Virus record (IMG/VR): IMGVR_UViG_3300021978_000001
Location: 1-64,000 of that record
Direction: 5' to 3' (one strand)
Origin: a virus
Lineage: Duplodnaviria; Caudoviricetes
Length of the DNA stretch: 64,000 bases
The number at the start of each line of letters is the position of its first letter. Position 1 is the first letter of the stretch. The notes beneath the pieces are model-generated. The model was not told the origin of the DNA and ran no database searches. It saw only the letters and a program-made list of their open reading frames with translations. Made by a program: the position numbers and the translations under genes. Below are positions 9,157 through 25,453 of the stretch, piece after piece.

Positions 9157-11412
9157 GTGGCTGATTGGAAGACGATGGACCTGGACCTCGGTGGGGTCAA
9201 GAACGCGCTGGATACTGTTCAGGGTGTCAGTGATGCGTTGCGCGCGGTCGGACAGATCGCTGCGACCATCCTCGACCTCTTGCGCGTGTTCACGGTTCCT
9301 TCCTTGCCCAACCCCATCGCTGCGGTCGCCAACGCGCTCGTGGCACAGCTCGAAGCCTTGCTGGATAGCCTCGCGGATACGGGCGTCTTCGGGCTGTATG
9401 TGGTCCCTACCTCCCTCGATGACCTCGCAGACAGCGCGGGGGGCTTCCCTCGCTTCTCGCAAAAGGTGATCGCGTCCTTCTACGATACCGATGACATCAA
9501 CCGACCCCAGGTGGGCGCGACCGGCGTCCTCGGTGGGATCGTGATCTATGTCAACGCGCCATCGGCAGCAGGGATCATCCAACAGGCCCTCGCGCTCTAC
9601 AACCTCTTTGGTCAGCGCCCTGAGATCAACTACCCCGCGCCAATCAATGTCCGCGCCACGCCCGCCGATGATAACGGCTCCGCGACGCCTGGGTTGCTCG
9701 AAGCCTTCCTCGAAACACGCGACCCCTTGACCACGATCTTGCTCGAATGGCAAGAGCCCACCTCCACGCAGTCGTTGTTCTTCGACCTCTTCGCGCAGAA
9801 CAAGTTCTACATCGAACGCAGCCGCACCCGTGACGGTATCCTCGTCACGCAAACCACCCCGAGCGTGAACGAAGAGGATTTCCTTGCCAAGCGTAAGCGC
9901 GAGCTTGCCGAGCTTCGCGGTGAGTGCCCTGTCGAGTTTCGAGAACCCGAGCTATCTCCTCGTGGTGAGCCTCGTTATGTCTGGGAGCCTCTCGACCCTG
10001 CTAACCCGTTCCTGGAAGCCGTGGATGCAGATGAGGGAGAAGGACGAGGCATCACAGGGAACTTCCTCGCGGGGACCTACTCCACCGTGTTGCGTGATGT
10101 GGACCCCGGGCAGGACAACGGGTACTACTACCGGATCACGAGCGTCCCCGAGGATACCGTCCTCGTGCAAGAGACCGCCGAAACCACGCTCGCAGATGGC
10201 ACGGCGCAACCGATCACGATCTACACCTTGCAGCTCGACGGGCAAGAGTACACAGGGAGCAGCCCGAGCGTTCCCGTGTATGGCTTTATCCCGGACATCG
10301 ACTTTAGCTCGCCAGCGGCGTTCAACCTCCCCGATGCCTTGCTCAACGTGTACCGTGCTGCTTACCTCTTGCGCATGGACACCACCGTGTTCAACACCAG
10401 CTCGCAGCCGCGTTCGGGCTCGGGGCTTCTCTCTCCGGTCATCCCGGATGTGATTCAGGCGCTCGACGTCCCGGACATCGCGTTTGACGGTGAAGGGCAG
10501 ATCACGGACGCGTTCGAGTCCCAGAACCCCGCAGGCTTTGTGGATAGCGATGATGGAACGTTCCGTCTTTTTCAGGGGTCGTTCTTCCCGGATGAGCGCT
10601 TCCCTGACGGTCCGCCTGGGTTTGGTGCATCGCGGCGCACGGTCGAAACCCTTGGCTCGGTGACGTCTTCGGATGCGATCGAACAAGATCCTTTCGCGGG
10701 CGCCAGGGAGCTGTTTGCTGCAAAGCTCGGTCTGACCCCGAGGCAGCGGTTCCGCCTGTTCACGGATCAGGTCGCCACAGACAAGATCGAACGCATCGTC
10801 CCCTTGATGACTCGCAACGAGACCTTGTTCGAGGCGTTTCGTATCGCTTATGTCAACGCGCAAGCAGACATCGAGGCGCTCCTGACGGGCTTCACGACCG
10901 ACTTCACGGTCACCGAGGAGGTCGGGGTACGTGAAGCAGTCGCGGCGCTCCTGGTGCTCGTGGATGGCCAGATCCGTCCAGGGCTTCCACCGAATTGGCG
11001 CTCGGTTCGTCTGTTTCGTGACGTGTTGCCTGAAGTGGACCTCGTGGGCGAGCGCTTGCTCAATGTCATCTCTGCGATCAACAATGCGATTCAAGGCGTG
11101 AACACGCGCCTCGATGCGACGGTCGAGGGGTTGCAACGCAGGTTGGCCGCGCTCGATGCCGTGGTCGATGCGCTCGACGAGATCATCGCGTTCCTCGAAG
11201 CGGCAGCGACGGTATCCTTGAACGCCTCGATTCTATTTGTACCGCCTACAGTTGGAGGCGTCGCAGCGTTTGTCGATGAGTTTCAAACCGCGACCAATCC
11301 TCCCGCATCTCTCCCGACAGACTACGGCGCTGGCTTCGTGCTCGCCGCAGGAGGAGACGCAGGAGAAGCGACCGCCCTCTTTAACGCGCTACGCCTTGTC
11401 TTTGGCTTCTGA
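9157..11412 (+). CDS. putative virion structural protein
   Basis: 751-aa ORF (GTG start), helical termini and acidic beta-rich core, in the structural gene run. Confidence 0.55.
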   Translation: MADWKTMDLDLGGVKNALDTVQGVSDALRAVGQIAATILDLLRVFTVPSLPNPIAAVANALVAQLEALLDSLADTGVFGLYVVPTSLDDLADSAGGFPRFSQKVIASFYDTDDINRPQVGATGVLGGIVIYVNAPSAAGIIQQALALYNLFGQRPEINYPAPINVRATPADDNGSATPGLLEAFLETRDPLTTILLEWQEPTSTQSLFFDLFAQNKFYIERSRTRDGILVTQTTPSVNEEDFLAKRKRELAELRGECPVEFREPELSPRGEPRYVWEPLDPANPFLEAVDADEGEGRGITGNFLAGTYSTVLRDVDPGQDNGYYYRITSVPEDTVLVQETAETTLADGTAQPITIYTLQLDGQEYTGSSPSVPVYGFIPDIDFSSPAAFNLPDALLNVYRAAYLLRMDTTVFNTSSQPRSGSGLLSPVIPDVIQALDVPDIAFDGEGQITDAFESQNPAGFVDSDDGTFRLFQGSFFPDERFPDGPPGFGASRRTVETLGSVTSSDAIEQDPFAGARELFAAKLGLTPRQRFRLFTDQVATDKIERIVPLMTRNETLFEAFRIAYVNAQADIEALLTGFTTDFTVTEEVGVREAVAALLVLVDGQIRPGLPPNWRSVRLFRDVLPEVDLVGERLLNVISAINNAIQGVNTRLDATVEGLQRRLAALDAVVDALDEIIAFLEAAATVSLNASILFVPPTVGGVAAFVDEFQTATNPPASLPTDYGAGFVLAAGGDAGEATALFNALRLVFGF

Positions 11413-12588: not shown

Positions 12589-12971
12589 TGCAAGGTCACG
12601 CCTTTCCCGAAGCTGTCCAGGCTTCGGCCCACGCGCTCCAGGTGCTTTGCCTGGGTCGCGGTGATGGGAACCACCACGCCGCTAAAGCATCCCATCCCAC
12701 GCTCTTCCTCGTAAGCCGCATCGAGCCACGCATCCTTCACGCTGCGCTCGATCTTCTCGACCGTCATGCACGCGGTCAAGTGTCTCGCCAAACGCGCTGC
12801 ATGCTCCTTACAGCTCTTGAGGGTTCCTTCCCCGCCCACGGTCTTGACCTCACCCTCGGGTGACGTGTACGTGGCCTGGAAGCGTCTACCCTCACGCAAG
12901 ATCACGAACTCGCCTCGTGCGTGTTCTGCCTTGTACGTTTTTCCTGTCCTTTCCCATGTCAGCGTCGTCAT
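12567..12971 (-). CDS. small hypothetical phage protein (TLTW family paralog)
   Basis: start MTTLTWERT after AAGGAGG RBS, downstream of a promoter motif. Confidence 0.65.
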   Translation of the reverse strand: MTTLTWERTGKTYKAEHARGEFVILREGRRFQATYTSPEGEVKTVGGEGTLKSCKEHAARLARHLTACMTVEKIERSVKDAWLDAAYEEERGMGCFSGVVVPITATQAKHLERVGRSLDSFGKGVTLQIMTLPV

Positions 12972-13002
12972 GTCATCCTCCTTTCTGTGTGACAAGGATG
13001 TA

Positions 13003-13027
13003 TACCACAAGGGTATGCCACCGTAAA
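13003..13027 (-). promoter_or_regulatory. sigma70-like early promoter TTTACG-N12-TGTGGTA
   Basis: matches a motif recurring more than 12 times upstream of genes in this window. Confidence 0.7.
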
Positions 13028-13102
13028 GATTTGACGTCAAAAAGATGAGTACGATTCTAGGATGGGCCAGGCGTTAAGCGCTTGTTCCATGTTCTGGAAT
13101 GT

Positions 13103-13616
13103 GGAACAGACCCCACAAAGGTGGGGAACATGAAGCGACTTTTGCGCCCGTCGATAGGCGCTGGGGACCATCCCCGCATGCGCGGGGAGCATGCGATCTG
13201 CTCGCGAGTATGCCCAGGATGAGCAGAACCATCCCCACAAGGGTGGGGAACATGTCGGCAGCCCGTGCGTACCAAAAAGATGGGCGGCGCCATCCCCGCA
13301 AGGGCGGGGAACACTTGGCGCCCACACAACGCCAGATGAAAGGCACGGGACCATCCCCGCATACGCGGGGAACACTTTCTTCACTCATCTCGTATCCTTT
13401 TCACAGGACCATCCCCGCACACGCGGGGAACACTGTTCTTTGTAGATGAGTTCTTGCAGTTCTTTGGGACCATCCCCGCACGCGCGGGGAACACCTCGGA
13501 GACTACAACCTGAAGATTGCGGACGTGGGACCATCCCCGCACGCGCGGGGAACACTCGCCCGGTGAGCTTTCGATATTCGACCCCTTGGGGCCATCCCCG
13601 CACGCGCGGGGAACAC
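13103..13616 (-). CRISPR. type I-E array 1 (9 repeats, 8 spacers) downstream of cas8e-cas11
   Basis: 28-bp repeat GTGTTCCCCRCNNNNGYGGGGATGGTCC at mostly 61-bp period; degenerate trailer at 13103. Confidence 0.95.
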
Positions 13617-13637
13617 TCTGAGACAACCTGTCACACC
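13617..13637 (-). promoter_or_regulatory. short leader, family A (TGTGACA-N3-TGTCTCAGA)
   Basis: same repeat-proximal sequence at 17019 and 23280, variant at 18126. Confidence 0.7.
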
Positions 13638-13650
13638 AGGGCACACCAGG

Positions 13651-15828
13651 TCAGGCGCTCTTGACGAGTCCTTCCTCTTCCTGCGTCTGCATCTTGAAGT
13701 AAGCGCGCGTCCACTCGTCCTTGGTGTCCTGATCCCAGGTCAGCAGGCTCAGGAGCAGGTCTTCACGGCTCCCGCCCGCCCCTTCGAGCATCGAGAGACA
13801 CGTCAACATCTCGCGCCACACACCCTCGGGCTTGCGGTGCGCGAGGAGCTGGTGGAAGCGGTGTTCGAGGATGCGCTTGCCCGATGCCATGCAGCGCGCG
13901 ACCTTGGCCTTGCCACGGAAGTCTTCGGGCGCAACCCTCGCCATCGCCTTGGCCATGAGCGCGATGCAGTCCGTGTCCACCTTGTCCTCACCAAAGACAG
14001 ACTCGATGATGGTCAATACCTTGATGTAGAAGGGGATGACCTTCGTGGCTTCGAGCGAGCGCGCGGCGAGCAGGGCTTGACGGTCCGCGCCACGCACATG
14101 GTGCAGCGTCATCCAGTGCTTGTAGAGCATGGGGAGGAACTCATCTTTGCGGGCGTAGATTTGGCGGTGCATGGCGTCCTTCTTGGTCTGGTACGTGATG
14201 CCCAGCTTTTGGGCGATGGTGTCGGAGAGCTTGACGCGCTCCAGGTAGGAGGAAGTCGTCCCCGAATACTGCCCCACGACGAAATCGTAGGGGTGCTTGA
14301 CGTGCGAGAGGTGTTTGTTGAACTGCATGAACACCTCATCGGCCAGGGCGCGGTTGAAGCGCGGCAAGACCTCCTCGGTGTAGGTGTCCACGTCATCGGC
14401 GCGACGCACACCCATCACCAGATTGTCAAGGTGCTTGCTCATGAGGAGATCGAGCGGCGTGAGAAGCCTGGTTTTCGTTTTCCCTGCCACCTTTTTGTAA
14501 AGCCCGAGCCTCTCCGCCGTCGCGTCGAGATACCAATCCATTTCACGGATGCTTTCGAGCGCGTGGCTCAATGCGTCTCGTACAGCGGCAGCGTTCTTCC
14601 CGAAGAGAAGAGGGATCGTGGTATCCGTGCGCCCACGAATGATGCCTTGCTTGGCGTGCAAGGCCGTGACGCGAACGCGCGGGACACCGTTGCTCCACAC
14701 ATCGTAGATGTAGTCCAGATCAGCCATGCGCGCGGCGAGGTGCCTCAGTACAGGCACGCCCGGCGTGTGTTGGTCGAGGTAGATCGCTTTCCACGCCGAT
14801 GTTCCGAGCGTGTCATCCTGGGGCGCCTGGAGGATGCGCTCGCCGTCCTGCTTGCCTTTCGAGTACGTGGGGATGGTCGCGTTTTGCGGCCTGATCCAGA
14901 GACCCTCGTACTTGATCGCGCTCCCCTTCCCGCCGTTCTCATCTCGGAGCTTTTTGTAAAGCTCGTCCTGCGCGGGGCTGATGTAGATGAAGTGAATGAG
15001 GCCGTTCTCATCGGGGTCGGGAACCATGTACTCGCGCCATGGCACCAGAATCCCGAGCAAGGGGTGATGGTCTGCGGTGTGCAGAGCCAGACTGTCCCAT
15101 TTCCCCTTCTTGGTATACAAAGCGCGGAGCTTTGGCGGCTTGATCCAGGGGAGCGTGAAGTCGAGCGTCTTCTTGTGACCCCACAACTCGTCCATCTCGC
15201 TTCGCAGCAAGAGGTTACTGGTGAGGGTCTCCCAGAGGTCACGCCCCTGGAGCGTGAAGGACACTTCCGCGTTGGTGTCGCGCGTTCCCGATCCCCTGCC
15301 ATATGCGTTGCTCCCCAGGCTCATGTGGTCGAGCGCGGTGATATGAGCGATGACGTCGGGGACTTCCAGGGACATGTGGTAGTCCACGTCATCCCCGAGG
15401 CCCCAGGGACGCTGCTTCCCTGGGTAGTCGTGACCGTACTTGTCCGCAGCGACGCACGAACCGAGCGCGTGCGGACTCAGTGCTTCCTTCCATTTCTCCT
15501 GGAGGGCATACTCACGGTTCTCGGGGACGGTCTGAAGCGCGCGTGGGCCATCACCAAAGAAGTTGAAATCCTTGATGTGGGGTGCGAGCGCTTCGGTAAG
15601 CTCCGGGCGCTCCAGGATCATATCTTCCCACTCCTCGTTGGTCTCGGGAGGAGTCAGGTATTGGAGCATGGCGATGAGGAAGTGCTCGATCCCCTGGCTC
15701 CATGCCGCGAAGTCGTAGTCGAGCTGCAAGCCCTCCTCACGGAGACCGTCGAAGCTCACGAGCTTTTTCTCCCCTTTGGCATCGCAGACGCGGATGAAGG
15801 GGTCTGTCAGTAGGTTGAGTTGCGTCAT
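13651..15828 (-). CDS. cas8e: Cas8e (Cse1/CasA) fused to C-terminal Cas11 (Cse2/CasB)
   Basis: N-terminus LNLLTDPFIRV typical of CasA; last ~170 aa (RILEHRFHQLL...DLLLSLLTWDQDTKDEWTRAYF) typical of Cse2; one 725-aa ORF. Confidence 0.8.
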   Translation of the reverse strand: MTQLNLLTDPFIRVCDAKGEKKLVSFDGLREEGLQLDYDFAAWSQGIEHFLIAMLQYLTPPETNEEWEDMILERPELTEALAPHIKDFNFFGDGPRALQTVPENREYALQEKWKEALSPHALGSCVAADKYGHDYPGKQRPWGLGDDVDYHMSLEVPDVIAHITALDHMSLGSNAYGRGSGTRDTNAEVSFTLQGRDLWETLTSNLLLRSEMDELWGHKKTLDFTLPWIKPPKLRALYTKKGKWDSLALHTADHHPLLGILVPWREYMVPDPDENGLIHFIYISPAQDELYKKLRDENGGKGSAIKYEGLWIRPQNATIPTYSKGKQDGERILQAPQDDTLGTSAWKAIYLDQHTPGVPVLRHLAARMADLDYIYDVWSNGVPRVRVTALHAKQGIIRGRTDTTIPLLFGKNAAAVRDALSHALESIREMDWYLDATAERLGLYKKVAGKTKTRLLTPLDLLMSKHLDNLVMGVRRADDVDTYTEEVLPRFNRALADEVFMQFNKHLSHVKHPYDFVVGQYSGTTSSYLERVKLSDTIAQKLGITYQTKKDAMHRQIYARKDEFLPMLYKHWMTLHHVRGADRQALLAARSLEATKVIPFYIKVLTIIESVFGEDKVDTDCIALMAKAMARVAPEDFRGKAKVARCMASGKRILEHRFHQLLAHRKPEGVWREMLTCLSMLEGAGGSREDLLLSLLTWDQDTKDEWTRAYFKMQTQEEEGLVKSA

Positions 15829-15831
15829 CGG

Positions 15832-16575
15832 TCAAGCTCCTTGCGTGAGGGTCTGGTAGGTGCCCTGGTGCTCGACGCGCTCGCGTTGCGAACCCGTCTT
15901 GGTCAGGTCATTGGGGACGTCGCGGCGGTAGTGCTCCTGCTCGACCTCACCGAGCGCGAGCGACTTGTCCCAACGCACCTCGCCGGGGTAGCAAGCGACG
16001 CCTTGCTCTGCCAACAGCGGGAAGCTCGAAAGGTGCGCCTCCCTGAGCGCGCTCAGAGCGTCCGTAGCCTCCAGGATGCGTGGGTTGAGGGGTGAGCTAG
16101 GGGTACAGCTCTTGCGTCCAATGTAGACCGGCCAGTGCGGTTTACGCAGCGCTTGGCAGAGGTCTTCGATGTGCAGCGCTTCTCCCACCTCCAAAATGAC
16201 CGTGAACGCATGGTCGATGAGGTAGTCCCGCTCGGTGAGCATGGTCTTGACGTGGGGGTGATGGACCGCGCCCTTGCGCGTGGTCGGCATCGGCGCGCTC
16301 TTGTTCGGGCCTTCAACCCACTTCACCGTGTGGAAGTCTCGCTGGTAGGAGGGCGTCGTTTGCCCCACGCGATAGGCGAGCGTGACCATCTTCGTGTTGT
16401 TTGCGAGCGCGTGGTGCATTGCTCGCTGGTGACGGGGGATACCGAGCGCGCAGGCAAGAAGCCCGAGCACCGCGCTCTTGGTTGGGGCACTCTCCGTGGT
16501 GCGCATGTTCGCCGTGGCGACGCCCCCAAAGGACATCATCGGGGCGCGGAGATCGAAAGCAAGGTATTGTTTCAT
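15832..16575 (-). CDS. cas5: Cas5e (CasD)
   Basis: LAFDLRAPMMSFG...PTKSAVLGLLACALGI, RDYLID and YIGRKSC motifs; start MKQY after AGAGG. Confidence 0.95.
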   Translation of the reverse strand: MKQYLAFDLRAPMMSFGGVATANMRTTESAPTKSAVLGLLACALGIPRHQRAMHHALANNTKMVTLAYRVGQTTPSYQRDFHTVKWVEGPNKSAPMPTTRKGAVHHPHVKTMLTERDYLIDHAFTVILEVGEALHIEDLCQALRKPHWPVYIGRKSCTPSSPLNPRILEATDALSALREAHLSSFPLLAEQGVACYPGEVRWDKSLALGEVEQEHYRRDVPNDLTKTGSQRERVEHQGTYQTLTQGA

Positions 16576-16611
16576 AACTTCCTCTTGTTGGTTTAGGACA
16601 CACACCTTTCA

Positions 16612-16636
16612 TACCACAGATGATACGAGGTGTAAA
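16612..16636 (-). promoter_or_regulatory. promoter for cas5-cas8e/11 (TTTACA-N12-TGTGGTA)
   Basis: recurring motif, directly after the array 2 trailer. Confidence 0.65.
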
Positions 16637-16637
16637 A

Positions 16638-17018
16638 GGAACACTCCCACAATGGTGGGAAAAAGACTCTCATCGCATCGGACCAGAACCATCCCCACAG
16701 AGGTGGGGAACACTAGTCTCGCGTTTCTTCGACGCCAAGTGTGAACGGACCATCTCCGCACATGCGGAGAACACTTTATGCATGCATTGCCAATCTTCAA
16801 TCCGAAGGGACCATCCCCGCGTGCGCGGGGAATACGCAATCGTGACATGGTGCGCTTATAATGCCGTGGGACCATCCCCGCAAAGGCGGGGAACACGCAC
16901 CCGTGACGCTCGTGATTTCGGTCGCCCCGGGACCATCCCCACACGCGTGGGGAACACTGAAGGCGCCCTCATCGGCACACAAGATCATGGGGACCATCCC
17001 CACACGCGTGGGGAACAC
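16638..17018 (-). CRISPR. type I-E array 2 (7 repeats, 6 spacers) between cas6 and cas5
   Basis: repeats at 16638, 16686, 16747, 16808, 16869, 16930, 16991; leader A at 17019. Confidence 0.93.
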
Positions 17019-17050
17019 TCTGAGACATCTTGTCACAGTTACAAGCACAG

Positions 17051-17776
17051 TCACAGAAGCTCGATCTGCGGCGCGGGCTTCACGAGCATCATCCCGGCAC
17101 CGAACGCCTTGCCGCGTCCCAACCCCTCGCGCCACACGGTCATGAAGGCGTCCACGTCCGTCACGCGCACGCGCATCTCGACCTGCACCATGTCCACCAC
17201 GATCTTGCGTCCGCGCTTGCGACCCTCGGAGCGCTGCATGTCGGTCAAACACTCCAGGCGCTCGATGGTGAAGCCGCACTTGTCCGCGCGGGCTTCCATC
17301 CACTCGACCATGAGATCGTGGAGAGGGCGCGCCTCGCGGTCCTCGATGGCGGCGAAGATGCGCTCGTAGGTATCCACGGCGAGGCGCTTGGGCTGGCCAT
17401 CCTCGATCAAGCGCTTGTCTCGTGTCTGGATCGTCGGGTTCACCCAGACGCGGACGTGCAAGGGTTGACCTTCGGTGAGCTGTGGCGTCATCTCTCGCGT
17501 CTGCACCTGGAAGTAGGGCGTCTCGCGGGGAGGCTCTTGAGAGATCATGTAGAAGATCCCACCCGTGGGAGGCGTACACAGGTAAGGGCGCTCACCCCCA
17601 GCCTCGACCTCGAAGAGTTCATAGAGGAGCTGGTGCAAGGCGTAACAGCCCTCGCCGCTCATTTGCATGAGCTTCTTGACACCCTGTTTCGTGTAGCGGC
17701 ACTGCGAGAGGTAGATGGGAGCCTCCTCGGATGCGGGTTTTGGTGGATTGAAGAGTTCTTGTTGTTGTGCAGTCAT
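17051..17776 (-). CDS. cas6: Cas6e (CasE) crRNA endonuclease
   Basis: HQLLYELF, VRVWVNPT and C-terminal G-loop GLGRGKAFGAGMMLV. Confidence 0.95.
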   Translation of the reverse strand: MTAQQQELFNPPKPASEEAPIYLSQCRYTKQGVKKLMQMSGEGCYALHQLLYELFEVEAGGERPYLCTPPTGGIFYMISQEPPRETPYFQVQTREMTPQLTEGQPLHVRVWVNPTIQTRDKRLIEDGQPKRLAVDTYERIFAAIEDREARPLHDLMVEWMEARADKCGFTIERLECLTDMQRSEGRKRGRKIVVDMVQVEMRVRVTDVDAFMTVWREGLGRGKAFGAGMMLVKPAPQIELL

Positions 17777-17788
17777 TGTTCTTCCTTT

Positions 17789-18125
17789 GAATTATCCCCA
17801 CTCATGTGGGGAACGTTTTAAAGAGCCTATCACTCAGCGTCAGGCTGGAATCGAACCATCCCCACAAGGGTGGGGAACACCGATTCGCGCGCCCTTATGT
17901 CCTAGTCCAAGACGGGACCACCCCCGCGTGTGCGGGGAACACTCTTCGGGGAGTGCTTCGAGGTCGCTTGCCGCAGGACCATCCCCGCATGCGCGGGGAA
18001 CACGTAATCCTGACCCAGACGATTCAGTTTGGTCACGGACCATCCCCGCACATGCGGGGAACACGCGACCCTCACCCGAAGCCTTGGAAGGTCGTAAGGA
18101 CCATCCCCGCGTATGCGGGGAACAC
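17789..18125 (-). CRISPR. type I-E array 3 (6 repeats, 5 spacers) between cas7 and cas6
   Basis: repeats at 17789, 17853, 17915, 17976, 18037, 18098. Confidence 0.93.
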
Positions 18126-18180
18126 CCTGTGCCACTTTGTCACGGTTGATGACAGGAGTGACACAGGGGAACGAAGGTCA

Positions 18181-19578
18181 TCACTCGGCAGCAGCCACTT
18201 CCTGCTCGATCTTGCCGAAGATCGACGTCAAGGTCTTCTCCACGAGGGCGTTCAGGTCAGGCGCGACCTCACCACCGGACGCCAGGGGCTCCAGGTCGTG
18301 CGTCTTTGCCCAGGTCGTGACCGCGCGGTGCTCCAGGTTCATGCGCGTGACCACGAGGTCATGGTGACGCTCCAGGCGCTCGATCGCTTCCTCGACGACG
18401 TTGCTCGACTCGACAGGCTGCATGAACGCGTCGGTGTACTGCGTCGGCTGTTCATCGGTCACGGTCGCCAGGACGTAGGAGGCGGGGATGAGGGATGCCA
18501 TCGTGGTCTGCTGACCGCCCGCCTGATACTTGACCATCGACTGCAAGACCGCCGCGACCGCCTCACGCGTCAAGTCCACGACATCACCCGTATCGGTGGT
18601 GCCTTCGACGTACAGCGTGCGCATGAGCTGGTGGAGGTCGATCGCCACGAAGTCGTAGAAGACCGTCGAGGTCATCGTCTTGAAGCCGTTGTGCGCCGAT
18701 CCGGTGTTGGGATCGAACGCATCCGTCGCGGTGAAGAAATCCGAGTCACCCACATACTCGGTCACGCCGATGCTGTGCGCGAAGCGGATGGCGCCATCCG
18801 CAGCAGGCATGTTCGTGTCCGAGGCGATCATGCGCCCGAAGAGCCCGATGTCCACGTTGGGAGAGGCTTGCGCCGTGGCGAAGTCCTTCTGGATCTGTGC
18901 GAAGGTTTCCGCGACCTTCTCATTGTAGACGGTCTCCAGGAGGCTCTTGTACGCCTCTTCCTTGTCCTCGGTCTCTTCGGTCTCGGTCTCCTCGGTGTCA
19001 CTCGTCAGCGCGGTGATGGCGGGCTTGAGGTCTGCCATGCCGTCCACGAGCTTGTCGAGCGCGTCCACCAAGCAGGCTTCCTCACTCTGCTTGACCTTGA
19101 TCGAAGCCGAGAGCGTGCGCCCGTCCTTCTTGACGTCTCCCTTGTCGCTGTGTGCGAAAGCCTCGATGCCTCCCTGGCTGTAGGTGATGCCGTCCTTGAT
19201 GGCAGCCTCGAAGGCGGACTTGCTACACGTCTTCTTCTTGCCAAAGAGCGGCGCGAGCAAGAGCGCTGCGGCGTAGGCGAACACGGGGTCTGCGCCGTCC
19301 TCGATCGCATCCTCGGAGATCTTGTTGAGGATCGTGCGCGTGTTGGTGCTCATGGACTGCTTCTCACGCAAGCCGTCGAAGAACGGACCGTTGCGCATGA
19401 TGCTTTTCCGGCACTGCGAGGATTCGCGAGCACGCAGGACACCTGCAAAGTCAGAGACCTTGGGTTGCCCCTGCTTGTCGCGGTTGCGGTTGCCTGGTGC
19501 GCTCGGGAGCAGCACATGCAAAGCGATCAGCTTTGGCGTGATTGCCAGAAGGGTGTTGAGTGCGTTTTTCTTTGCCAT
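18181..19578 (-). CDS. cas7: Cas7e (CasC) backbone subunit
   Basis: NRNRDKQGQPK...RARESSQCRK, VDIGLFGRMIA, DFFTATD...GSAH motifs; start MAKK chosen from RBS spacing. Confidence 0.93.
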   Translation of the reverse strand: MAKKNALNTLLAITPKLIALHVLLPSAPGNRNRDKQGQPKVSDFAGVLRARESSQCRKSIMRNGPFFDGLREKQSMSTNTRTILNKISEDAIEDGADPVFAYAAALLLAPLFGKKKTCSKSAFEAAIKDGITYSQGGIEAFAHSDKGDVKKDGRTLSASIKVKQSEEACLVDALDKLVDGMADLKPAITALTSDTEETETEETEDKEEAYKSLLETVYNEKVAETFAQIQKDFATAQASPNVDIGLFGRMIASDTNMPAADGAIRFAHSIGVTEYVGDSDFFTATDAFDPNTGSAHNGFKTMTSTVFYDFVAIDLHQLMRTLYVEGTTDTGDVVDLTREAVAAVLQSMVKYQAGGQQTTMASLIPASYVLATVTDEQPTQYTDAFMQPVESSNVVEEAIERLERHHDLVVTRMNLEHRAVTTWAKTHDLEPLASGGEVAPDLNALVEKTLTSIFGKIEQEVAAAE

Positions 19579-19642
19579 TTTCATCTTCCTGTACTCGTAG
19601 TCGTGTGGAGCGGCACACCCCCATGGCGCGCCCTTCTCCGGG

Positions 19643-19671
19643 GGATCATTCCCACATGAGGTGGGAAGCAT
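19643..19671 (-). repeat. orphan degenerate CRISPR repeat upstream of cas7
   Basis: GGATCATTCCCACATGAGGTGGGAAGCAT (+): repeat-like with intact TCCCAC/GTGGGA stem. Confidence 0.7.
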
Positions 19672-19678
19672 GTTTTGG

Positions 19679-19708
19679 ACTATACGGTCCTATGCGATGC
19701 GTTGTCAA
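19679..19708 (-). promoter_or_regulatory. sigma70 promoter for cas7 (TTGACA-N18-TATAGT)
   Basis: near-consensus -35/-10 read on the minus strand between cas3 and the orphan repeat. Confidence 0.7.
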
Positions 19709-19717
19709 CACCTTTTT

Positions 19718-22339
19718 TTACGGTTTCTGTAAACCGAGGTATGCATCATACGAAAGCATGATAGCGCCGCCCTGTTCATCGACCATCGGGAGATCCCATC
19801 CATAGGAAGTCTTCGTGGCGATGACGACCTCGCGCGTTTGCTTGAAGGGGAAGCTATCCAGGATCGCCTCGGGAATCTCGGGGCGGTCGTATGCCCAGTA
19901 GATGGGGATGGTGATGCGTGAGCCAGAGCGTGTACCTGCGACCGGGACGAGGACGCCGTTCTCTTCATACCAGACCTCCCAACGCCTCGACGGGATGATG
20001 TCTCGGGTCTGGATGGGCTTCTCGCTCCCCCACAAGGCTGCGGACTTCGCGTAAGTCTTGCTAAAATCCAGCGTCCCACGTCTCGCCGTGTTGCCTGTAT
20101 CCTCATCGCGCAAGAGGACGCGCTCGTGTACATGCGCGAGCGACTTGGGGATCTCATCCTTGGCGCGGCGTAACAGCTCGCGTGTATCGCAAGGAAGCTG
20201 CCAGGGGTCTTTGCACAAGGAAGCGGAGGTGTAGAGCGTTGCGATGTCCGGGTAGATGTAGCGCGTGTCTTGCAGGCTCGGGCTGTGCTCGACCCACCGT
20301 GCGTCTGGTGTTCCGATCAGAGGAGGCGTGAAAAGCCCCATGCACACGTTGATACGTTCGCCGTCTTCGTGACGCAGGACACGTCCAGCGCGCTGGATAA
20401 GCAGGTCCACGTCACACACGTCGCTGATTCCCCAGTCAAAGCTCACGTCGAGGGATTCCTGCAAGACCTGGGTGCAGACCACGATCTTACCGCGCCGTGC
20501 ATCCTTCGGGGCGCCACGGCCAAAGGAGGTAACGAGAATCTCATCGCGCTTTTGACGGTCTGCGAGCGTATACCTCGAATGGGTCAAGATCACATCATCG
20601 TACCTGGCCTTGATCGCTTCATACGCACGACAGGCGGAGTTGACCGTGTTGCGGAACCAAACCACCGCCTCCCCATCATACGCGCGTTGCACGAGTTCAT
20701 TGACCACGGCATCGAGTGACCCCTGATCCTCGAAGATCTCCCAGTGAAGCTCGCGCTTCTGGTGTGGGTTGACCGACTGCACCTGGCGTATCGCGTCCCC
20801 CTGGACATACGTCATCGCGGGCAAGGTGGGTGGTGTGTCTGCTTTCGCGCGCCCGCTCGTGTATGCGTCAATAAGCATGGAGCGCGCTTCGGCGTCGCAT
20901 GTCGCTGACATCGCGATGACAGGTTGGCCCGCGCGTCCGCACCACTGGAGCAAGGCACACAGCAAGGGCATCATGTGTGCATCCATCGTGTGGACCTCAT
21001 CCAACACGAGCACCGAGCGGGAGAGCGCGGCGAGACGCATGGGCGCGAAGTACCTCGGAATCACCGCCAGCAAGAGCTGGTCGATGGTGCAGACATTGAC
21101 CTGGGAGAAGAGCGCTTGACGTGAGGACGAGTTGAGCCACTCCGACGCGGTGAGGGTTCCCCCCTGGGAATCCTTCAAGATGCGCCACGTTCTGTTCTCC
21201 TGGCGCGAGGAGTGAATCAGGGAGAGGGTGGGAGGCTCGGTGAACGAAACCTCTGCGTATTCCATGACCCGAGGGAAGATCCCGTTGGCCGTGGCGCGTG
21301 TCGGGAGCGCGAAGGTGATGCCCTTGCATCCGCTCTTGTGCATCATCTCCCTGGCGAGCGCGAGCCCTGCTTCTGTCTTACCCGCGCCTGTGGCGTCCTC
21401 GATCAAGATGAAGCCTTCCCCCTCGATCTGCCTCGCCATGCCCTGTGCGGCGCGCTGGAGAGGTCTGGGGCTATGTTCTGGTGCGAGGAGTCCTTCCCAA
21501 AACTCGGTCTCGCGTACCGGCACATGCGCGAACTGCACATCCTCATACGCGCGCGTCGCGCCCGAGAGCGCGTAGCAATGCCAGTACGTCCTCGGGTCCA
21601 TCCAATCGCCGTGGAGCGTGAAGTAATCCTGGGTCGAACCGAGCCAATCACTGATCTGGCCAATCCCGGCGAGCAACCAGGACGCACGTTCCATGTCGGG
21701 CGCCTTGGTGTAATCGCCTTGCAAGCCCCCCATCGCGAGCTTGATCGCCTCACAATGCGCCTCGAAGCGCTCCTGCGTATTGCGAACCTTGACGCCGTTC
21801 TCGACATCCGCCCACTGCTCGCTGGCCTTGGGTCGGTTGTTCGGGTCGATCCCGGTTTTCTTTTGGAAGGGGAGCGCGTAGCCATGGTGCGAGAAGCTCG
21901 CGTGCAAGAGCGCGTTGATCTCTCGCTTCCCCACGCCAAGGAAGCCCTGGACCTTGCGTAGCATGGTGTATCCCACGAGATCATGGCGCATCTCCGCGCC
22001 GGGGATCTCCAGGATAGGCTTTGGCTCGAAGGGTTCGAGCGAGTTCAGGTACGCGACCGCCTGCGCGCTCTTTGCCTGAAAGTTGTCGGTGAGCTTCCCG
22101 AGGTCATGGAACATGTACAGGAGAGCCATGTCATGCATGAGGACATGCCTTGAGACCCCGAGAGCTTCACAAAGTTGGCGGCCCCATTCATCCTCGCGCT
22201 GGAGCATGACATAGACACAGCCCGCGACATCCATATTGTGGTACAACACGAGGTGGATGCCCTGGACGGGCGCCTCGCTGCCGGGCGACTGGTCGGTCTT
22301 TGCCCAGCAGCGGTTGTAGGGTAGGAAGTGGGTGGACAT
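19718..22339 (-). CDS. cas3: Cas3 HD nuclease-SF2 helicase
   Basis: HNMDVA, FHDLGK, SHHG, SDWLGS (HD); DATGAGKTE, DEVH, MSAT, LIQRAGRVLRH (helicase). Confidence 0.96.
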   Translation of the reverse strand: MSTHFLPYNRCWAKTDQSPGSEAPVQGIHLVLYHNMDVAGCVYVMLQREDEWGRQLCEALGVSRHVLMHDMALLYMFHDLGKLTDNFQAKSAQAVAYLNSLEPFEPKPILEIPGAEMRHDLVGYTMLRKVQGFLGVGKREINALLHASFSHHGYALPFQKKTGIDPNNRPKASEQWADVENGVKVRNTQERFEAHCEAIKLAMGGLQGDYTKAPDMERASWLLAGIGQISDWLGSTQDYFTLHGDWMDPRTYWHCYALSGATRAYEDVQFAHVPVRETEFWEGLLAPEHSPRPLQRAAQGMARQIEGEGFILIEDATGAGKTEAGLALAREMMHKSGCKGITFALPTRATANGIFPRVMEYAEVSFTEPPTLSLIHSSRQENRTWRILKDSQGGTLTASEWLNSSSRQALFSQVNVCTIDQLLLAVIPRYFAPMRLAALSRSVLVLDEVHTMDAHMMPLLCALLQWCGRAGQPVIAMSATCDAEARSMLIDAYTSGRAKADTPPTLPAMTYVQGDAIRQVQSVNPHQKRELHWEIFEDQGSLDAVVNELVQRAYDGEAVVWFRNTVNSACRAYEAIKARYDDVILTHSRYTLADRQKRDEILVTSFGRGAPKDARRGKIVVCTQVLQESLDVSFDWGISDVCDVDLLIQRAGRVLRHEDGERINVCMGLFTPPLIGTPDARWVEHSPSLQDTRYIYPDIATLYTSASLCKDPWQLPCDTRELLRRAKDEIPKSLAHVHERVLLRDEDTGNTARRGTLDFSKTYAKSAALWGSEKPIQTRDIIPSRRWEVWYEENGVLVPVAGTRSGSRITIPIYWAYDRPEIPEAILDSFPFKQTREVVIATKTSYGWDLPMVDEQGGAIMLSYDAYLGLQKP

Positions 22340-22385
22340 GGGAAACCTCTCTGTCCTTTTGGGAGAATGAGTATCAGATTCCTGA

Positions 22386-22410
22386 TACCATAAACGAGAG
22401 GTTGTGTAAA
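22386..22410 (-). promoter_or_regulatory. promoter for cas3 (TTTACA-N12-TATGGTA)
   Basis: recurring motif about 45 nt upstream of the cas3 start. Confidence 0.65.
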
Positions 22411-22432
22411 GTGAAAGCGCTATCAGGAGCGC

Positions 22433-22714
22433 TTAGTAATCACCCATGATGTAGTGGTCGAAGGAAGCGTAGTAAACACACTGGAAACCGCACTCGCACA
22501 CGAAACCCTGACGGGGATAGCACTGCCGGATTTCCGCAGGAGACATCAATTCGGCGGAAGGCCGATGAAAATTGATCGTGCCTACCGTCTTCCCGCACTT
22601 CTGGCACGTCATCTCGTGCAGCTCTTCCTGGGGTGTGAAGTCGTCTGGTCGAGGGGGAGGTTCGGTAGGCCCCATGATAAAGGCCATCGCGGCTTTCATT
22701 TCATCGTCTGTCAT
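22433..22714 (-). CDS. small Zn-binding protein
   Basis: CQKC and CECGFQC motifs, 93 aa. Confidence 0.6.
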   Translation of the reverse strand: MTDDEMKAAMAFIMGPTEPPPRPDDFTPQEELHEMTCQKCGKTVGTINFHRPSAELMSPAEIRQCYPRQGFVCECGFQCVYYASFDHYIMGDY

Positions 22715-23004
22715 TAGCTTCTCTCGACGTAAAGGGCATTCATGCGCTGTAGATGGTCTTCACGCTCGAATTGTTCTTTGAGCTTTTTCGCTTCATCACG
22801 GCGATCACGCTGCGTCTCCTGGTAGCGGATCACGAGAAGATTCATCACCCTTCGGTGATAGACCTCGGTAAGCTCGCAAGGTTCTGTCTCTGCGCGCAAG
22901 ACATCCGCAGGCTCTACCTGCAAGGCTTCGGCCAGTTGGTAAATGTCGAAACCGAGCGCGTCTCGAAGGGTCTGGAGTTCGAGGGTTTTGGAGAAAGTAG
23001 CCAT
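22714..23004 (-). CDS. XRE-like helix-turn-helix protein
   Basis: LQTLRDALGFDIYQLAEALQVEPADVLRAE resembles an XRE HTH; AAAGGA RBS right after the array 4 trailer. Confidence 0.6.
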   Translation of the reverse strand: MATFSKTLELQTLRDALGFDIYQLAEALQVEPADVLRAETEPCELTEVYHRRVMNLLVIRYQETQRDRRDEAKKLKEQFEREDHLQRMNALYVERS

Positions 23005-23017
23005 GATCAATCCTTTG

Positions 23018-23279
23018 GTGGTGTCCCCACAAAGGTGGGGAATATGTTGGGAGCGAACTGTGCGCCGGACCATCCCCACAAAGGTGGGGAACACGTGTCA
23101 TCAGGACACACGCCTTGGAGAGTTGTAGGACCATCCCCGCGCATGCGCGGGGAACACAGGATGTCCCCGATCTCGGGCAGTATCCATTCGGGACCATCCC
23201 CGCATACGCGGGGAACACCCGAGATCATAGCTGATGCCCGTCTCGGTTGTGGGACCATCCCCGCATACGCGGGGAACAC
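23018..23279 (-). CRISPR. type I-E array 4 (5 repeats, 4 spacers)
   Basis: repeats at 23018, 23067, 23128 (30 bp), 23191, 23252. Confidence 0.92.
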
Positions 23280-23374
23280 TCTGAGACATCTTGTCACACC
23301 TGATCGCACCGAACCTCACGACTCCTCTCGAAGCCATGAAAGCGAGGTTACACTACTTGACGCATGTCCGTCAA
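23280..23374 (-). promoter_or_regulatory. longer leader A with putative promoter (TTGACG-N13-TAGTGTA)
   Basis: TCTGAGACATCTTGTCACA at the array edge; promoter-like motif 23349-23374 containing palindromic TTGACG/CGTCAA. Confidence 0.55.
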
Positions 23375-23401
23375 GTGAAAGACCACATCAAGTGCCAAAT
23401 C

Positions 23402-23525
23402 GAGCCATCCCTGCACATGCAGGGAACAGTGAGCAGACATGCCATGTCGTTTCAGTAACTTGCGGACCATCCCCACATGTATGGGGAATACGAATCAAAA
23501 GTTACGCTTCAGAACCATCCCCCGC
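23402..23525 (-). CRISPR. degenerate array remnant (2 repeats plus a half repeat)
   Basis: repeats at 23402 and 23464; GAACCATCCCCCGC half repeat at 23512 ending at a gene stop. Confidence 0.7.
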
Positions 23526-23921
23526 CTAAGCATCTCGTGTAGTGGTACATGCCTTTTGGGGCGTTTCGGTGGTTCCAACGTGCGGAGCGTAAAGTGTCGT
23601 ACATTCGATGCTCTCCAATCCAAGGGCGTCTCGGAGGTCGTGGAGGACCAGGGAGACTTCGGTTGCCAGGGGGTGAGGGCGTCCCCTGTTGTAGTTCTTG
23701 ACCATGTTCGTGGCGGCGAGTTGTTTCCTCATCTCTTTGCAGCACTCGAAGGCAATTTCGAGCCTGTCCTGTACGTGTTCGGGGCGGCTGATTTTTCGGG
23801 TGCAGGCACCCAGGGTCTTGGCGCAAGCGCGCACCACTTCGTTCCCGTCATCCCAGCGCACAGCCTGTGCGATCACTTCGATGGTCACGTTCTTCAGTTG
23901 CTCGATCGTTGCGTCTTCCAT
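23526..23921 (-). CDS. hypothetical protein
   Basis: MEDATIEQ start after AAGGAG RBS, promoter motif upstream. Confidence 0.65.
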   Translation of the reverse strand: MEDATIEQLKNVTIEVIAQAVRWDDGNEVVRACAKTLGACTRKISRPEHVQDRLEIAFECCKEMRKQLAATNMVKNYNRGRPHPLATEVSLVLHDLRDALGLESIECTTLYAPHVGTTETPQKACTTTRDA

Positions 23922-23971
23922 GGGTCGGCTCCTTGTGGTGTGTGCCGTTGTCTTGTCGTTACATCTACTGG

Positions 23972-23996
23972 TACCACAAGGAGCCATGACCGTAAA
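23972..23996 (-). promoter_or_regulatory. early promoter TTTACG-N12-TGTGGTA
   Basis: recurring motif. Confidence 0.7.
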
Positions 23997-24013
23997 AACT
24001 TTCTGTGAAGTTT

Positions 24014-24631
24014 TTATCGGGACCAGCGCTCACCCTGGAAGGTGTGCCCGCTTTCGCGGCTTTCTCCGGGCGTGATCGTGCCATGGGTCGCGAGCGCTTT
24101 TCGGGTGAGCTTTTCGAGGTGGGCGTTGTAGGTGAGGGTAAAGAGCGCGCGGACATCATAGTGATTCATGCCGCGCCCCTTGCAGCGGGACTCGAACTCG
24201 GGCATGTACGGGTCCATACCCGGGTTGGTCTCGCGTGGCACCCAACAGATACCATCCTCGAACGCAGAAGCCGCAGCATCCTGTGCCCAGGAGATCACAT
24301 CGTTGAGCGTCCCTGTGGGGAGCCTCTTGACGCGACGGTCTTTCTTGGCAGCTTCGAGCGCGACCTCGTAACACTGTCCGAGCAAGCTGTCGTATGTGAG
24401 CTGTCCTGTAAGCTCGTGTACCTGGTCTGCGGGAGGTTGGACACCGCGCAGGGTTGTTGTGATCAGCTCGATCGTCTGACGTTGCGTGCGAAACTGCGTA
24501 TCCTCGGAGTCAATGAGGTCGGCTTGAATAGCCATCGTCACCGCGAGGCGGTAGTTCTCGATGTTTGGCTCACGGTTGTAGCGCGTCACCGCGCCAAGTA
24601 CCTCGGGTTTCGTCGGTGTGGAGTCTGTCAT
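24014..24631 (-). CDS. hypothetical protein
   Basis: 205-aa ORF with GAGG RBS. Confidence 0.6.
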   Translation of the reverse strand: MTDSTPTKPEVLGAVTRYNREPNIENYRLAVTMAIQADLIDSEDTQFRTQRQTIELITTTLRGVQPPADQVHELTGQLTYDSLLGQCYEVALEAAKKDRRVKRLPTGTLNDVISWAQDAAASAFEDGICWVPRETNPGMDPYMPEFESRCKGRGMNHYDVRALFTLTYNAHLEKLTRKALATHGTITPGESRESGHTFQGERWSR

Positions 24632-24635
24632 AGGG

Positions 24636-25031
24636 TCACCTCACAGGGATGTAGTGGATAGGGACATGCTCGTCCCTGTACTCGATCGTGGGGATGGGTA
24701 CCCAGTGCGAACGGCCAGGGGGCATGAAAGTATCACGCGGTGGGATGTAACACCATACCTCTTCGAGCTGGGGCTTTTCCTTGGCAGGTCCGTAAGCCGC
24801 GCAGCTTACATGTTTGACCTTGCTGTAGAAGCTGCGCATCCGCGCGAGATCACGAGAGGTCATGGGGCGGGGCTTACCGGAGAGGTCGGTCAACCAGATG
24901 AGCCCGACATAAGTACCCCCCTCATACAAGGCGGGATACCAGCCGCGCTCTTTCGGGAGTCCTTCTGCTTGCGCGAAGGGGATGGCGCCGTCTTCGGTGA
25001 ATCCGATGTAGGTCAGTTGTAGATAAAGCAT
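24636..25031 (-). CDS. hypothetical protein
   Basis: TGATG overlap with the upstream gene; Tyr/Trp/Pro-rich ~131 aa. Confidence 0.5.
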   Translation of the reverse strand: MLYLQLTYIGFTEDGAIPFAQAEGLPKERGWYPALYEGGTYVGLIWLTDLSGKPRPMTSRDLARMRSFYSKVKHVSCAAYGPAKEKPQLEEVWCYIPPRDTFMPPGRSHWVPIPTIEYRDEHVPIHYIPVR

Positions 25032-25453
25032 CACTTGTGACTCACATTCCCGCCCGCGTGAACACTACCGCCCACAGCCTTGCAGTTCACGTTGCCGCCA
25101 GCGCGCACGGACCCCACGACGGCCTTGCAGTTCACGTTGGAGGTAGCGTGAACATCGCCGCCCACGGCCTTGCAGTTCACGTTACCACCTGCGCGCACGT
25201 CACCCTCGACATTTCCACGCACTTCGACCGAGGCATCACACTCGACGAGAGAGACATCGCCCTCGATGACCACACGGACAATGCGACCTTCGTCGGAGCC
25301 TTCGACCCGCTCACCATCGACGAAAACTTCATCGTTGATGATCGAGACGTTCTGACCACGGTAGGTTTTTCCATTGACGGTGACGGTGCCGTTTCCGCTC
25401 ACAATGTTACTGCCCCCGACCTGAATGTTTCCGTTACCCTTGATTTTCATCAT
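25031..25453 (-). CDS. beta-solenoid repeat protein (bactofilin/adhesin-like)
   Basis: three 15-aa repeats (GG/TS)NVNCKAV(G/V)G(D/S)V(H/R)A; AAAAGGA RBS after the array 5 trailer. Confidence 0.65.
   Translation of the reverse strand: MMKIKGNGNIQVGGSNIVSGNGTVTVNGKTYRGQNVSIINDEVFVDGERVEGSDEGRIVRVVIEGDVSLVECDASVEVRGNVEGDVRAGGNVNCKAVGGDVHATSNVNCKAVVGSVRAGGNVNCKAVGGSVHAGGNVSHK

Follow-up and report, generated by a model that had tools for sequence, protein, structure and literature searches.

A probable type I-E CRISPR interference module with arrays built into its cas operons on a 437-kb marine giant phage

The first 64,000 nucleotides of IMG/VR virus record IMGVR_UViG_3300021978_000001 (hereafter the window) carry a type I-E locus of CRISPR repeats and cas genes, in which arrays of several spacers lie between the cas genes. 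The locus is probably an interference module without adaptation genes, its arrays built into the cas operons, on a 437-kb marine giant phage. Canonical type I-E loci follow the order cas3-cas8e-cas11-cas7-cas5-cas6-cas1-cas2, with the array outside; in the window the order is cas3-cas7-cas6-cas5-cas8e::cas11, not a contiguous operon with an external array, and every junction but that between cas5 and cas8e (3 nt) contains a repeat. Judged from sequence, the system is type I-E by its proteins (Cas3, Cas8e plus Cas11, Cas7e, Cas5e and Cas6e) and by its 29-nt hairpin repeats, and departs from the type in its operon layout and in its adaptation module, which was not found.

The source contig measures 437,490 bp and has overlapping ends; its virus record carries direct terminal repeats and a CheckV completeness rating of 100%. 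Identity as a phage follows from that record together with an HK97-type capsid match at 231 kb of the genome and PHROG matches to a baseplate wedge, a DNA polymerase and a DnaB-like helicase in the 64-kb window, and not from the Pfam models Terminase_6N, Terminase_6C and Phage_sheath_1, which found no match in the phage genome. The source sample is a hydrothermal-vent metagenome, and related sequence is present in marine and seawater runs from six other studies; megablast of window 13-32 kb against INPHARED phages gave no match.

Pfam, NCBIfam and PADLOC profiles recognise five type I-E effector open reading frames (ORFs) between 13.6 and 22.3 kb, every one on the minus strand:

19718-22339, minus strand: cas3 (type I-E), HD nuclease and superfamily 2 (SF2) helicase; PADLOC Cas3e E 3e-154
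18181-19584, minus strand: cas7e, 467 aa; Pfam Cas_CT1975 171.5 bits
17051-17776, minus strand: cas6e; TIGR01907 casE 95.7 bits, cut-off 45.2
15832-16575, minus strand: cas5e; TIGR01868 casD 148.5 bits, cut-off 68.95
13651-15828, minus strand: cas8e::cas11 fusion, 725 aa; Pfam Cse1 at residues 5-475, Cse2 at 621-711

In Cas3 the HD, Walker A (GAGKTE) and DEVH motifs are all intact in an alignment to PDB 4q2c, with Pfam scores of 104.9 bits for Cas3_HD and 101.9 bits for Cas3-like_C_2; the NCBIfam equivalog score of 322.7 bits lies under the cut-off of 569, indicating a divergent protein. The catalytic histidine of Cas6e (YALHQ, residue 48) aligns with H20 of E. coli CasE, and the G-rich loop is kept. 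The true ATG of cas7 is placed at 19584, correcting 19671, and that of cas5, at 16575, is preceded by a GAGGAAG ribosome-binding site. Cas7 exceeds the typical Cas7e length by about 100 aa, its extra segments being rich in Lys, Asp and Glu; the Cas7 of a sister phage lineage, described below, is also long (448 aa).

Both halves of the Cas8e::Cas11 fusion score above their Pfam gathering thresholds (Cse1 57.9 bits, cut-off 24.7; Cse2 27.3 bits, cut-off 24.6) and are found by PADLOC (Cas8e E 2.4e-19; Cas11e E 1.2e-10), with NCBIfam scores under their cut-offs; Cas8e has no sequence match in PDB, and word-index homologue searches with Cas8e::Cas11 and with Cas6 returned their own 90% cluster only. 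The fusion poses a stoichiometry problem, because canonical E. coli Cascade contains two Cas11 subunits. Met553, which follows a purine-rich stretch inside the fusion and is conserved in the sister lineage as Met563, might serve as an internal start yielding a free Cas11 of 173 aa, although this is speculation. Internal translation of Cas11 within cas8 or cas10d has been reported for subtypes I-B, I-C and I-D (McBride et al. 2020, 10.1101/2020.04.18.045682; PMC11899642), where large and small subunit likewise share one frame; the phage system is I-E, and its internal start is suggested by sequence alone.

Profiles for Cas1 and Cas2 (PF01867, TIGR03638, PF09707 and PF09827) gave no match in the complete 437,490-bp genome, the PF09707 model having given no response on the E. 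coli control.

The repeats are 29 nt long and of I-E type, reading GTGTTCCCC-R-C-NNNN-G-Y-GGGGATGGTCC-N on the minus strand, with a 61-nt period and spacers of about 32 nt. Every one of them is co-oriented with the cas genes, as are some 78 repeats across the phage genome, where arrays hold 2-9 repeats each. Those among and immediately upstream of the cas genes are, in order of transcription:

23017-23279, minus strand: array D, 5 repeats, of which the last is degenerate and merges into the ribosome-binding site of orf96, a small gene upstream of cas3
19643-19671, minus strand: orphan degenerate repeat in the cas7 5' untranslated region, between cas3 and cas7, with a 7-bp hairpin and 5-nt loop
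17788-18125, minus strand: array C, 6 repeats, between cas7 and cas6
16685-17018, minus strand: array B, 6 repeats, between cas6 and cas5, the first two identical
13103-13616, minus strand: array A, 9 repeats, after cas8::cas11

When 50 repeats of the window are compared, pairing in the 7-bp stem is preserved in 98.4% of cells, with compensatory double changes at 4 of its 7 pairs, values that none of 500 shuffles reached; the folding energy of the repeat is -14.3 kcal/mol, and Rfam returned no CRISPR-DR or other family above threshold. The four loop bases vary freely, and loop and closing pair (both G-C and A-U occur) differ between neighbouring repeats within arrays, while the leader-proximal repeats of arrays A, B, D and F are identical pairs, a pattern that recent duplication of repeats would produce. 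At the end of array C, the terminal repeat (17788-17816) keeps its hairpin and has AUAAUUCAAAGGAAGAACA-AUG in place of its 3' handle; this sequence supplies cas6 with its ribosome-binding site and start codon. The cas6 ATG lies 12 nt past this repeat, and the stretch from ribosome-binding site to AUG is unpaired in the fold.

This layout is found in independent assemblies. In the source sample, Logan contigs spanning 12900-17039 and 17011-23297 show 0 differences. From a second marine study (X2), one contig extends from array A's first repeat across cas8::cas11 and cas5 as far as array B's last repeat, and another links array B to array D by way of cas6, an array, cas7, cas3 and the small genes; a third study supplies a contig of 9,447 nt (L001) with the order orf96-orf93-cas3-orphan repeat-cas7-array-cas6-array-cas5-cas8::cas11. 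The genes of L001 are 93-96% identical to those of the window at the nucleotide level, with nearly every spacer different and with 4 repeats in array C against 6 in the window. Protein conservation between strains reaches 98% for Cas3 and 94% for Cas8e::Cas11, and junction sequences are conserved while spacers change. Since matching junctions recur in independent contigs that carry different spacers, an assembly artefact, named as a possible flaw when the locus was first described, is excluded by contigs of the source sample and of two other marine studies, and the arrays are dynamic.

That earlier annotation of this DNA (the original prediction) had proposed a phage-borne type I-E locus of scrambled gene order, with an intact interference module, repeats at all junctions except cas5/cas8e and no cas1 or cas2. 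Its account agrees with the virus record, terminal repeats, and capsid and baseplate matches; with profile-based classification by Pfam, NCBIfam and PADLOC; with the gene calls, whose order recurs in other contigs and in the sister lineage; with five whole reading frames that keep the catalytic motifs of Cas3 and Cas6e; with the repeat mapping; and with the four adaptation models run over the whole genome.

Promoters and terminators were sought by a consensus scan of the locus, in which a single strong promoter, P_cas7, appears on the cas strand. A further motif, TTTAC[AG]-N13-15-TGGTA[AT], has a phage-specific fuller form, TTTAC[AG]-N13-15-(C)TT(G/A)TGGTA[AT]CAG; the genome contains 50 copies, against 0.5 in shuffles, lying on the strand of local genes, and the motif is evidently a promoter class of the phage. 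Promoter motifs and leaders of the cas locus are as follows:

22382-22410, minus strand: phage-class motif before cas3, TTTACA-N-TGGTATCAG
19679-19708, minus strand: P_cas7, sigma-70-like TTGACA-18-TATAGT, 11 of 12 consensus positions
16608-16636, minus strand: phage-class motif before cas5
12999-13027, minus strand: phage-class motif before orf134, after array A
18126-18180, minus strand: promoter-less short leader, cas7 stop to array C, a variant of the GTGACAAG..CAGA motif
17019-17050, minus strand: promoter-less short leader, cas6 stop to array B, GTGACAAGATGTCTCAGA
13617-13650, minus strand: promoter-less short leader, cas8::cas11 stop to array A

P_cas7 and two of the phage-class motifs thus supply the separate promoter motifs that had been claimed for cas3, cas7 and cas5; further phage-class sites occur in the window at 28624-28652 and 41121-41149. 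From stop codon to first repeat there are 34 nt (cas8::cas11/array A), 32 nt (cas6/array B) and 55 nt (cas7/array C), and in none of these three gaps did the scan detect a promoter or a terminator. Elsewhere in the genome, a long leader (TTGACA-N18-TACCTT, then about 95 nt ending in TTTGAAGA) precedes arrays F, G, H, J and K. At arrays D and I and at a solitary repeat at 405 kb, a TTGAC promoter stands before a short leader whose end reads GTGACAAGATGTCTCAGA; in front of arrays A, B and C only this short leader or its variant is present, directly after stop codons.

Because the spacers of array C vary by strain, no conserved promoter would lie within that array, and cas6 would be transcribed through it from P_cas7. 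With arrays that follow stop codons without promoter or terminator, and with the cas6 ATG set on a terminal repeat, co-transcription and self-processing by Cas6 is the only economical reading; co-transcription of the arrays with the cas genes is strongly implied. The orphan repeat begins about 10 nt past the -10 element of P_cas7, such that the cas7 transcript would open with the orphan repeat hairpin.

Four transcription units can be proposed on this basis. The first would run from the array D promoter (P_D) through array D to orf96 and orf93, the second from P_cas3 into cas3, the third from P_cas7 through the orphan repeat, cas7, array C and cas6 to array B and its tail unit (described below), and the fourth from P_cas5 through cas5 and cas8e::cas11 to array A. 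Cleavage by Cas6e would fall at the 3' base of each repeat hairpin, releasing CRISPR RNAs (crRNAs) and parting the cas7 and cas6 mRNAs both from one another and from the arrays; the cut cas6 mRNA would start about 20 nt before its AUG with the ribosome-binding site free, and the cas7, cas6 and cas8::cas11 mRNAs would end in a Cas6-bound hairpin. Cascade, composed of Cas8e::Cas11, Cas7, Cas5 and Cas6, would act with Cas3 to destroy spacer-matching DNA, most likely that of competing phages or mobile elements of the same host, and new spacers would presumably come from a host I-E Cas1-Cas2 in trans, or by recombination. Transcripts, Cas6 cuts, interference, targets and the route of spacer acquisition are all inferred in this scheme.

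The arrays might instead be independent transcription units, driven by cryptic promoters within the cas7, cas6 and cas8::cas11 3' ends or by the GTGACAAG..CAGA leader, with interleaving no more than compact packing, an explanation that is improbable. Arrays A, B, D and I have the short leader motif in conserved form, and it could hide an unrecognised phage promoter, the phage uses non-consensus promoter classes, and a TTGACG hexamer lies in the cas7 3' end. In arrays D and I and at the 405-kb solitary repeat, however, a clear TTGAC promoter precedes the leader motif by about 60 nt, which marks the motif as a transcribed leader and not a promoter; no -10 element stands at the right spacing, the scan gave no match, and there is no room for a cas6 promoter, with 12 nt after the repeat and variable spacers in front.

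Spacers turn over fast between near-identical phages. One array-D spacer of L001 matches orf93 of L001's own cas locus with 4 mismatches (two at seed positions 1 and 4) and no canonical protospacer-adjacent motif (PAM), which suggests that it targets orf93 variants in kin phages; comparison of spacers with the phage's own genome and with L001 gave only this near-self orf93 match. Fast turnover and the orf93 near-match together lend indirect support to the original view of the locus as a weapon against competing elements. An orf93-directed spacer also fits the phage-versus-phage targeting reported for huge phages (PMC7162821) and for viral mini-arrays (PMC11656645). An exact IMG/VR scan with the duplicated spacer of arrays F and G found no match, and blastn of arrays D2-H against INPHARED gave repeat-like matches in Streptomyces phages only, with no spacer match. 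Spacers compared with the sister loci, both ways, produced matches of 13-17 nt that were judged chance, including one of 14 nt between the F/G spacer and the sister cas8e. The F/G spacers themselves (array G, 28873-28904; array F, 25917-25948) are identical at 28 of 32 positions, and their differences look partly synonymous in one frame, as if covering two variants of one coding target.

As for the source of spacers, the identical leader-proximal pairs look like recent canonical insertions, presumably made by a host enzyme, and the variable loops of the older repeats would be in keeping with recombination among the many arrays of the phage. Exact matches to the repeat occur in several Actinomycetota and in a Burkholderiales metagenome-assembled genome, where the leaders are unrelated.

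That the repeats and arrays are mainly RNA decoys or regulators, soaking up host Cas6e or Cascade or reprogramming a host I-E system while the phage Cas proteins play a minor part, is decidedly unlikely. Phage solitary repeats acting as RNA anti-CRISPRs, and mini-arrays using host Cas, are documented (PMC10651486; PMC11656645), many solitary repeats are scattered over this genome, and the repeat is identical to I-E repeats of several bacteria. A decoy would nevertheless require neither spacers nor Cas3, whereas the locus encodes a full Cascade and Cas3 with intact catalytic motifs, conserved in two lineages, and arrays of 5-9 repeats with 32-nt spacers that turn over.

Several points weigh against an active module with co-transcribed arrays. 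A consensus scan may miss weak cryptic promoters in the 3' ends of cas genes, no RNA run was found to contain the locus, and three small metatranscriptome runs of the source study gave zero contigs of the locus DNA. The T-run hairpin after array B may end that transcript, and the 5-nt loop of the orphan repeat might not be accepted by Cas6e. Loop heterogeneity between neighbouring repeats is unusual for an actively acquiring array, and the searches described above found no true protospacer for any spacer. Assignment of a host by repeat identity was rejected, the leaders being unrelated, and neither a host nor a host Cas1-Cas2 is called.

The origin of the layout is illuminated by a sister lineage. 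An exhaustive Cas7 profile search returned its own 90% cluster, one relative at 42% identity and then ordinary I-E Cas7 at no more than 38%; beyond the two phage lineages no Cas7 comes closer than about 35-38% identity, and a single-protein search of IMG/VR found no close Cas7 relative. The 42% relative lies on contigs of 366-373 kb with homologues of the window's 751-aa and 2292-aa ORFs beside the locus, which identifies it as a sister giant phage. Its locus reads small Zn-ribbon gene-orf88-cas3-cas7-cas6-cas5-cas8::cas11, with the same scramble and the same fusion, its Cas8::Cas11 being 27% identical over the full length. The sister cas7-cas6 gap is 76 nt and holds two repeat-like hairpins, the cas6-cas5 gap holds a phage-class promoter only, and after cas8 stands a uniform array of 8 repeats that has the TTTGAAGA leader. 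P0008, among the next-nearest Cas7 relatives, has the canonical order cse2-cas7-cas5, and a search of JGI metagenomes with the long-leader motif found the sister phage only. Because the sister shares order and fusion without internal arrays, order and fusion are ancestral and the multi-spacer internal arrays clade-specific and later; the internal arrays plausibly grew from solitary repeats. The sister also has three arrays around its contiguous cas block, one of them inverted; these arrays and the two bare repeat-like hairpins are placed at L045 3485-4054, 6012-6517, 11347-11424 and 15302-15757.

The same comparison bears on whether the locus is decaying or inactive, its arrays having been inserted by recombination at stray repeats into a layout without function, which is very improbable. 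Heterogeneous repeat loops, degenerate terminal repeats and a sister lineage without internal arrays would be in keeping with decay, but the five cas frames are intact, Cas3 and Cas8e::Cas11 keep 98% and 94% protein identity between strains, the catalytic residues are present, compensatory changes preserve the hairpin, and junctions are conserved while spacers change. That array repeats were mis-joined to cas genes can be dismissed for all practical purposes: repeats do break short-read assemblies and the Logan contigs end inside arrays, yet contigs from three independent data sets span gene/array/gene junctions in the same order, and the IMG/VR genome closes on itself with terminal repeats.

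Returning to the preferred reading of an interference module with built-in arrays, a further element is attached to the end of array B:

16644-16684, minus strand: array-B tail unit, a 23-nt pseudo-spacer (16662-16684) followed by a degenerate repeat-like T-run hairpin (16644-16661)

The hairpin scored as terminator-like in the scan, and the unit is a candidate regulatory crRNA-like RNA, terminator, or both. Compared with plus strand 19686-19701, the first 16 nt of the pseudo-spacer are identical at positions 1-5, 7-14 and 16, and the match falls inside P_cas7, between the -10 and -35 elements. In L001, P_cas7 is identical and the pseudo-spacer has one more seed mismatch, at position 12. Positions 6 and 12 are flipped-out bases in type I guides. 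Sixth-position mismatches are tolerated in I-E and I-F regulatory mini-arrays (Shmakov et al. 2023, 10.1101/2023.03.03.530964). The flanking triplet of the candidate target is TAC. As comparable seed matches occur genome-wide at the chance rate (7 among 78 repeats), autoregulation is proposed for the P_cas7-matching unit and for no other; the case for it consists of location and the sixth-position mismatch pattern, and the sister lineage has no analogous promoter match. An autoregulatory guide against the cas7 promoter is accordingly put forward as a tentative proposal, somewhat less likely to be right than wrong.

It is also conceivable, if doubtful, that Cas6e and the repeat hairpin form a genome-wide RNA punctuation device with a role beyond crRNA maturation. 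Repeats between cistrons, on ribosome-binding sites (cas6, orf96 and at least 5 other small genes) and before tRNAs would then set the ends of mRNAs and tRNA precursors, Cas6 would control the stoichiometry and stability of its own operon's products, and the array-B tail guide would send Cascade to the cas7-cas6 promoter in a negative feedback loop. Internal arrays would have grown from processing sites, of which the sister would keep the bare form as repeat hairpins between cas7 and cas6. Seven arrays retain the hairpin of the terminal repeat with the 3' handle swapped for a Shine-Dalgarno sequence, an ATG following 6-22 nt past the repeat:

17788-17816: repeat/ribosome-binding-site fusion at cas6
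23017-23045: fusion at orf96
25472-25500 and 30919-30947: two further fusions in the window
110412, 405610 and 408212 (genome positions): three further fusions outside the window

The small proteins encoded after these terminal repeats (84-140 aa) are mutually unrelated and have no Pfam match. Within a tRNA cluster at genome 126.9-127.8 kb (L043 7945-8700), repeats end about 35 nt before tRNA-Met and tRNA-Val, where RNase P might set the 3' end of a hairpin-less guide; a tRNA with anticodon CTA (amber suppressor; called Pyl by ARAGORN) lies at L043 1039-1111.

Relative to canonical I-E systems (E. coli K-12, Thermobifida fusca), the phage locus has the same Cas3, Cas8e, Cas11, Cas7e, Cas5e and Cas6e families, the same 29-nt repeat with 7-bp stem and tetraloop, the same 32-nt spacers and the same Cas6e histidine and G-loop; it differs in its scrambled order, the lack of Cas1-Cas2, arrays inside operons, several promoters of two classes, a Cas8e-Cas11 fusion that is not the I-E norm, and very divergent proteins. 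A literature search of limited breadth found no description of cas genes interleaved with multi-spacer arrays, or of Cas6 sites fused to a cas6 start. A likeness exists in the design of Qi et al. 2012, in which Cas6/Csy4 sites were reportedly engineered into synthetic operons to give separate mRNAs: a Cas6-family hairpin stands between cistrons, directly before a ribosome-binding site. That design is a laboratory construct, whereas the phage arrangement would be natural, with the enzyme's own gene in the processed transcript.

Among known phage systems, the locus belongs to the class of huge-phage CRISPR-Cas without adaptation genes, for which Al-Shayeb et al. 2020 (PMC7162821) give a median of six repeats and propose phage-versus-phage targeting. 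Shared features are a genome above 200 kb, the absence of Cas1/Cas2 and compact arrays; the passages of that paper considered here highlight a type I-C variant and types II and V, and no I-E locus with inter-cas arrays or with terminal repeats on translation starts was found in them. The lytic Vibrio phage ICP1 (Seed et al. 2013, cited in PMC11656645) likewise carries its own type I system, one that targets a competing mobile element, but ICP1 has a small genome and a subtype I-F system whose cas genes, Cas1 and Cas2-3 included, form a contiguous operon with the arrays outside. Regulatory mini-arrays (10.1101/2023.03.03.530964) resemble the phage locus in having repeat-like elements near cas3 in I-E loci, and the array-B tail may be akin to their one-spacer units, in which the seed pairs with a cas promoter and mismatches at every sixth position are tolerated. 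They differ in that the internal arrays of the phage hold 5-8 true, strain-variable spacers, only the array-B tail looking regulatory, and in the flanking triplet, which is TAC against the AAG PAM of E. coli.

Beyond the cas genes, neighbouring genes are placed as follows:

22714-23004, minus strand: orf96, putative small XRE/helix-turn-helix (HTH)-like protein, its ATG 13 nt past the terminal repeat of array D
22433-22714, minus strand: orf93, small Cys-rich, zinc-ribbon-like protein, containing a near-cognate match to a spacer of L001
12567-12971: orf134, the next gene past array A, whose promoter motif marks the end of the locus

The likeness of orf96 to XRE/HTH proteins comes from an atlas match and is a lead only; orf96 has no Pfam match. 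With these genes the extent first assigned needs partial revision: the cas genes and arrays A-C stand as placed, and the locus continues upstream to array D and two small genes. The CRISPR island in the window spans about 13.1-31.2 kb, against 13.1-22.4 kb in the first reading. At least 10 further co-oriented I-E mini-arrays or solitary repeats lie beyond the cas locus (D2, E, F, G and H in the window):

23401-31211 (window): further arrays and repeats
110409-110731, 120217-128071, 148858-148881, 405007-405030, 405607-405818 and 408209-408653 (genome): further arrays and repeats

The array D promoter contains the palindrome CTTGACG-N6-CGTCAAG at 23356-23375. The general form, CTTGAC-N5-9-GTCAAG, overlaps the -35 element and has 4 genome sites, 3 of which are CRISPR-array promoters:

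23356-23375 (window): array D promoter site
405102-405120, 405915-405933 and 283135-283153 (genome): the remaining sites

This palindrome is a possible operator of a dedicated regulator, for which orf96 would be a candidate. At repeat position 29, the last base, C prevails in arrays A, B, D and H, whereas arrays F and G mostly have G. This position derives from the PAM in E. coli I-E, and the split could reflect two PAM preferences or two spacer sources; the base is not tied to leader type, since H shares the long leader with F and G. Adjoining the CRISPR island are ORFs of 2292 aa (1736-8614) and 751 aa (9157-11412), both without a PHROG match, and the sister-phage locus has positional counterparts in a 743-aa ORF, 63% identical to the 751-aa protein, followed by a 2277-aa ORF.

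If the preferred reading of arrays built into and cut out of the cas transcripts is true, a natural CRISPR nuclease would serve as an operon-processing enzyme, a role that to our knowledge is known mainly from synthetic biology, and crRNA production, cas mRNA stability and subunit stoichiometry would be linked in one RNA. The locus offers a compact I-E interference module of about 9 kb that would process its own RNA and would need no adaptation genes, and a concrete candidate for short-guide promoter feedback in a phage-borne system. Spacer turnover without Cas1-Cas2 poses the question of how giant phages renew their spacers, and, with the sister lineage serving as a 'before' state, the pair of lineages would show arrays arising at stray repeats.

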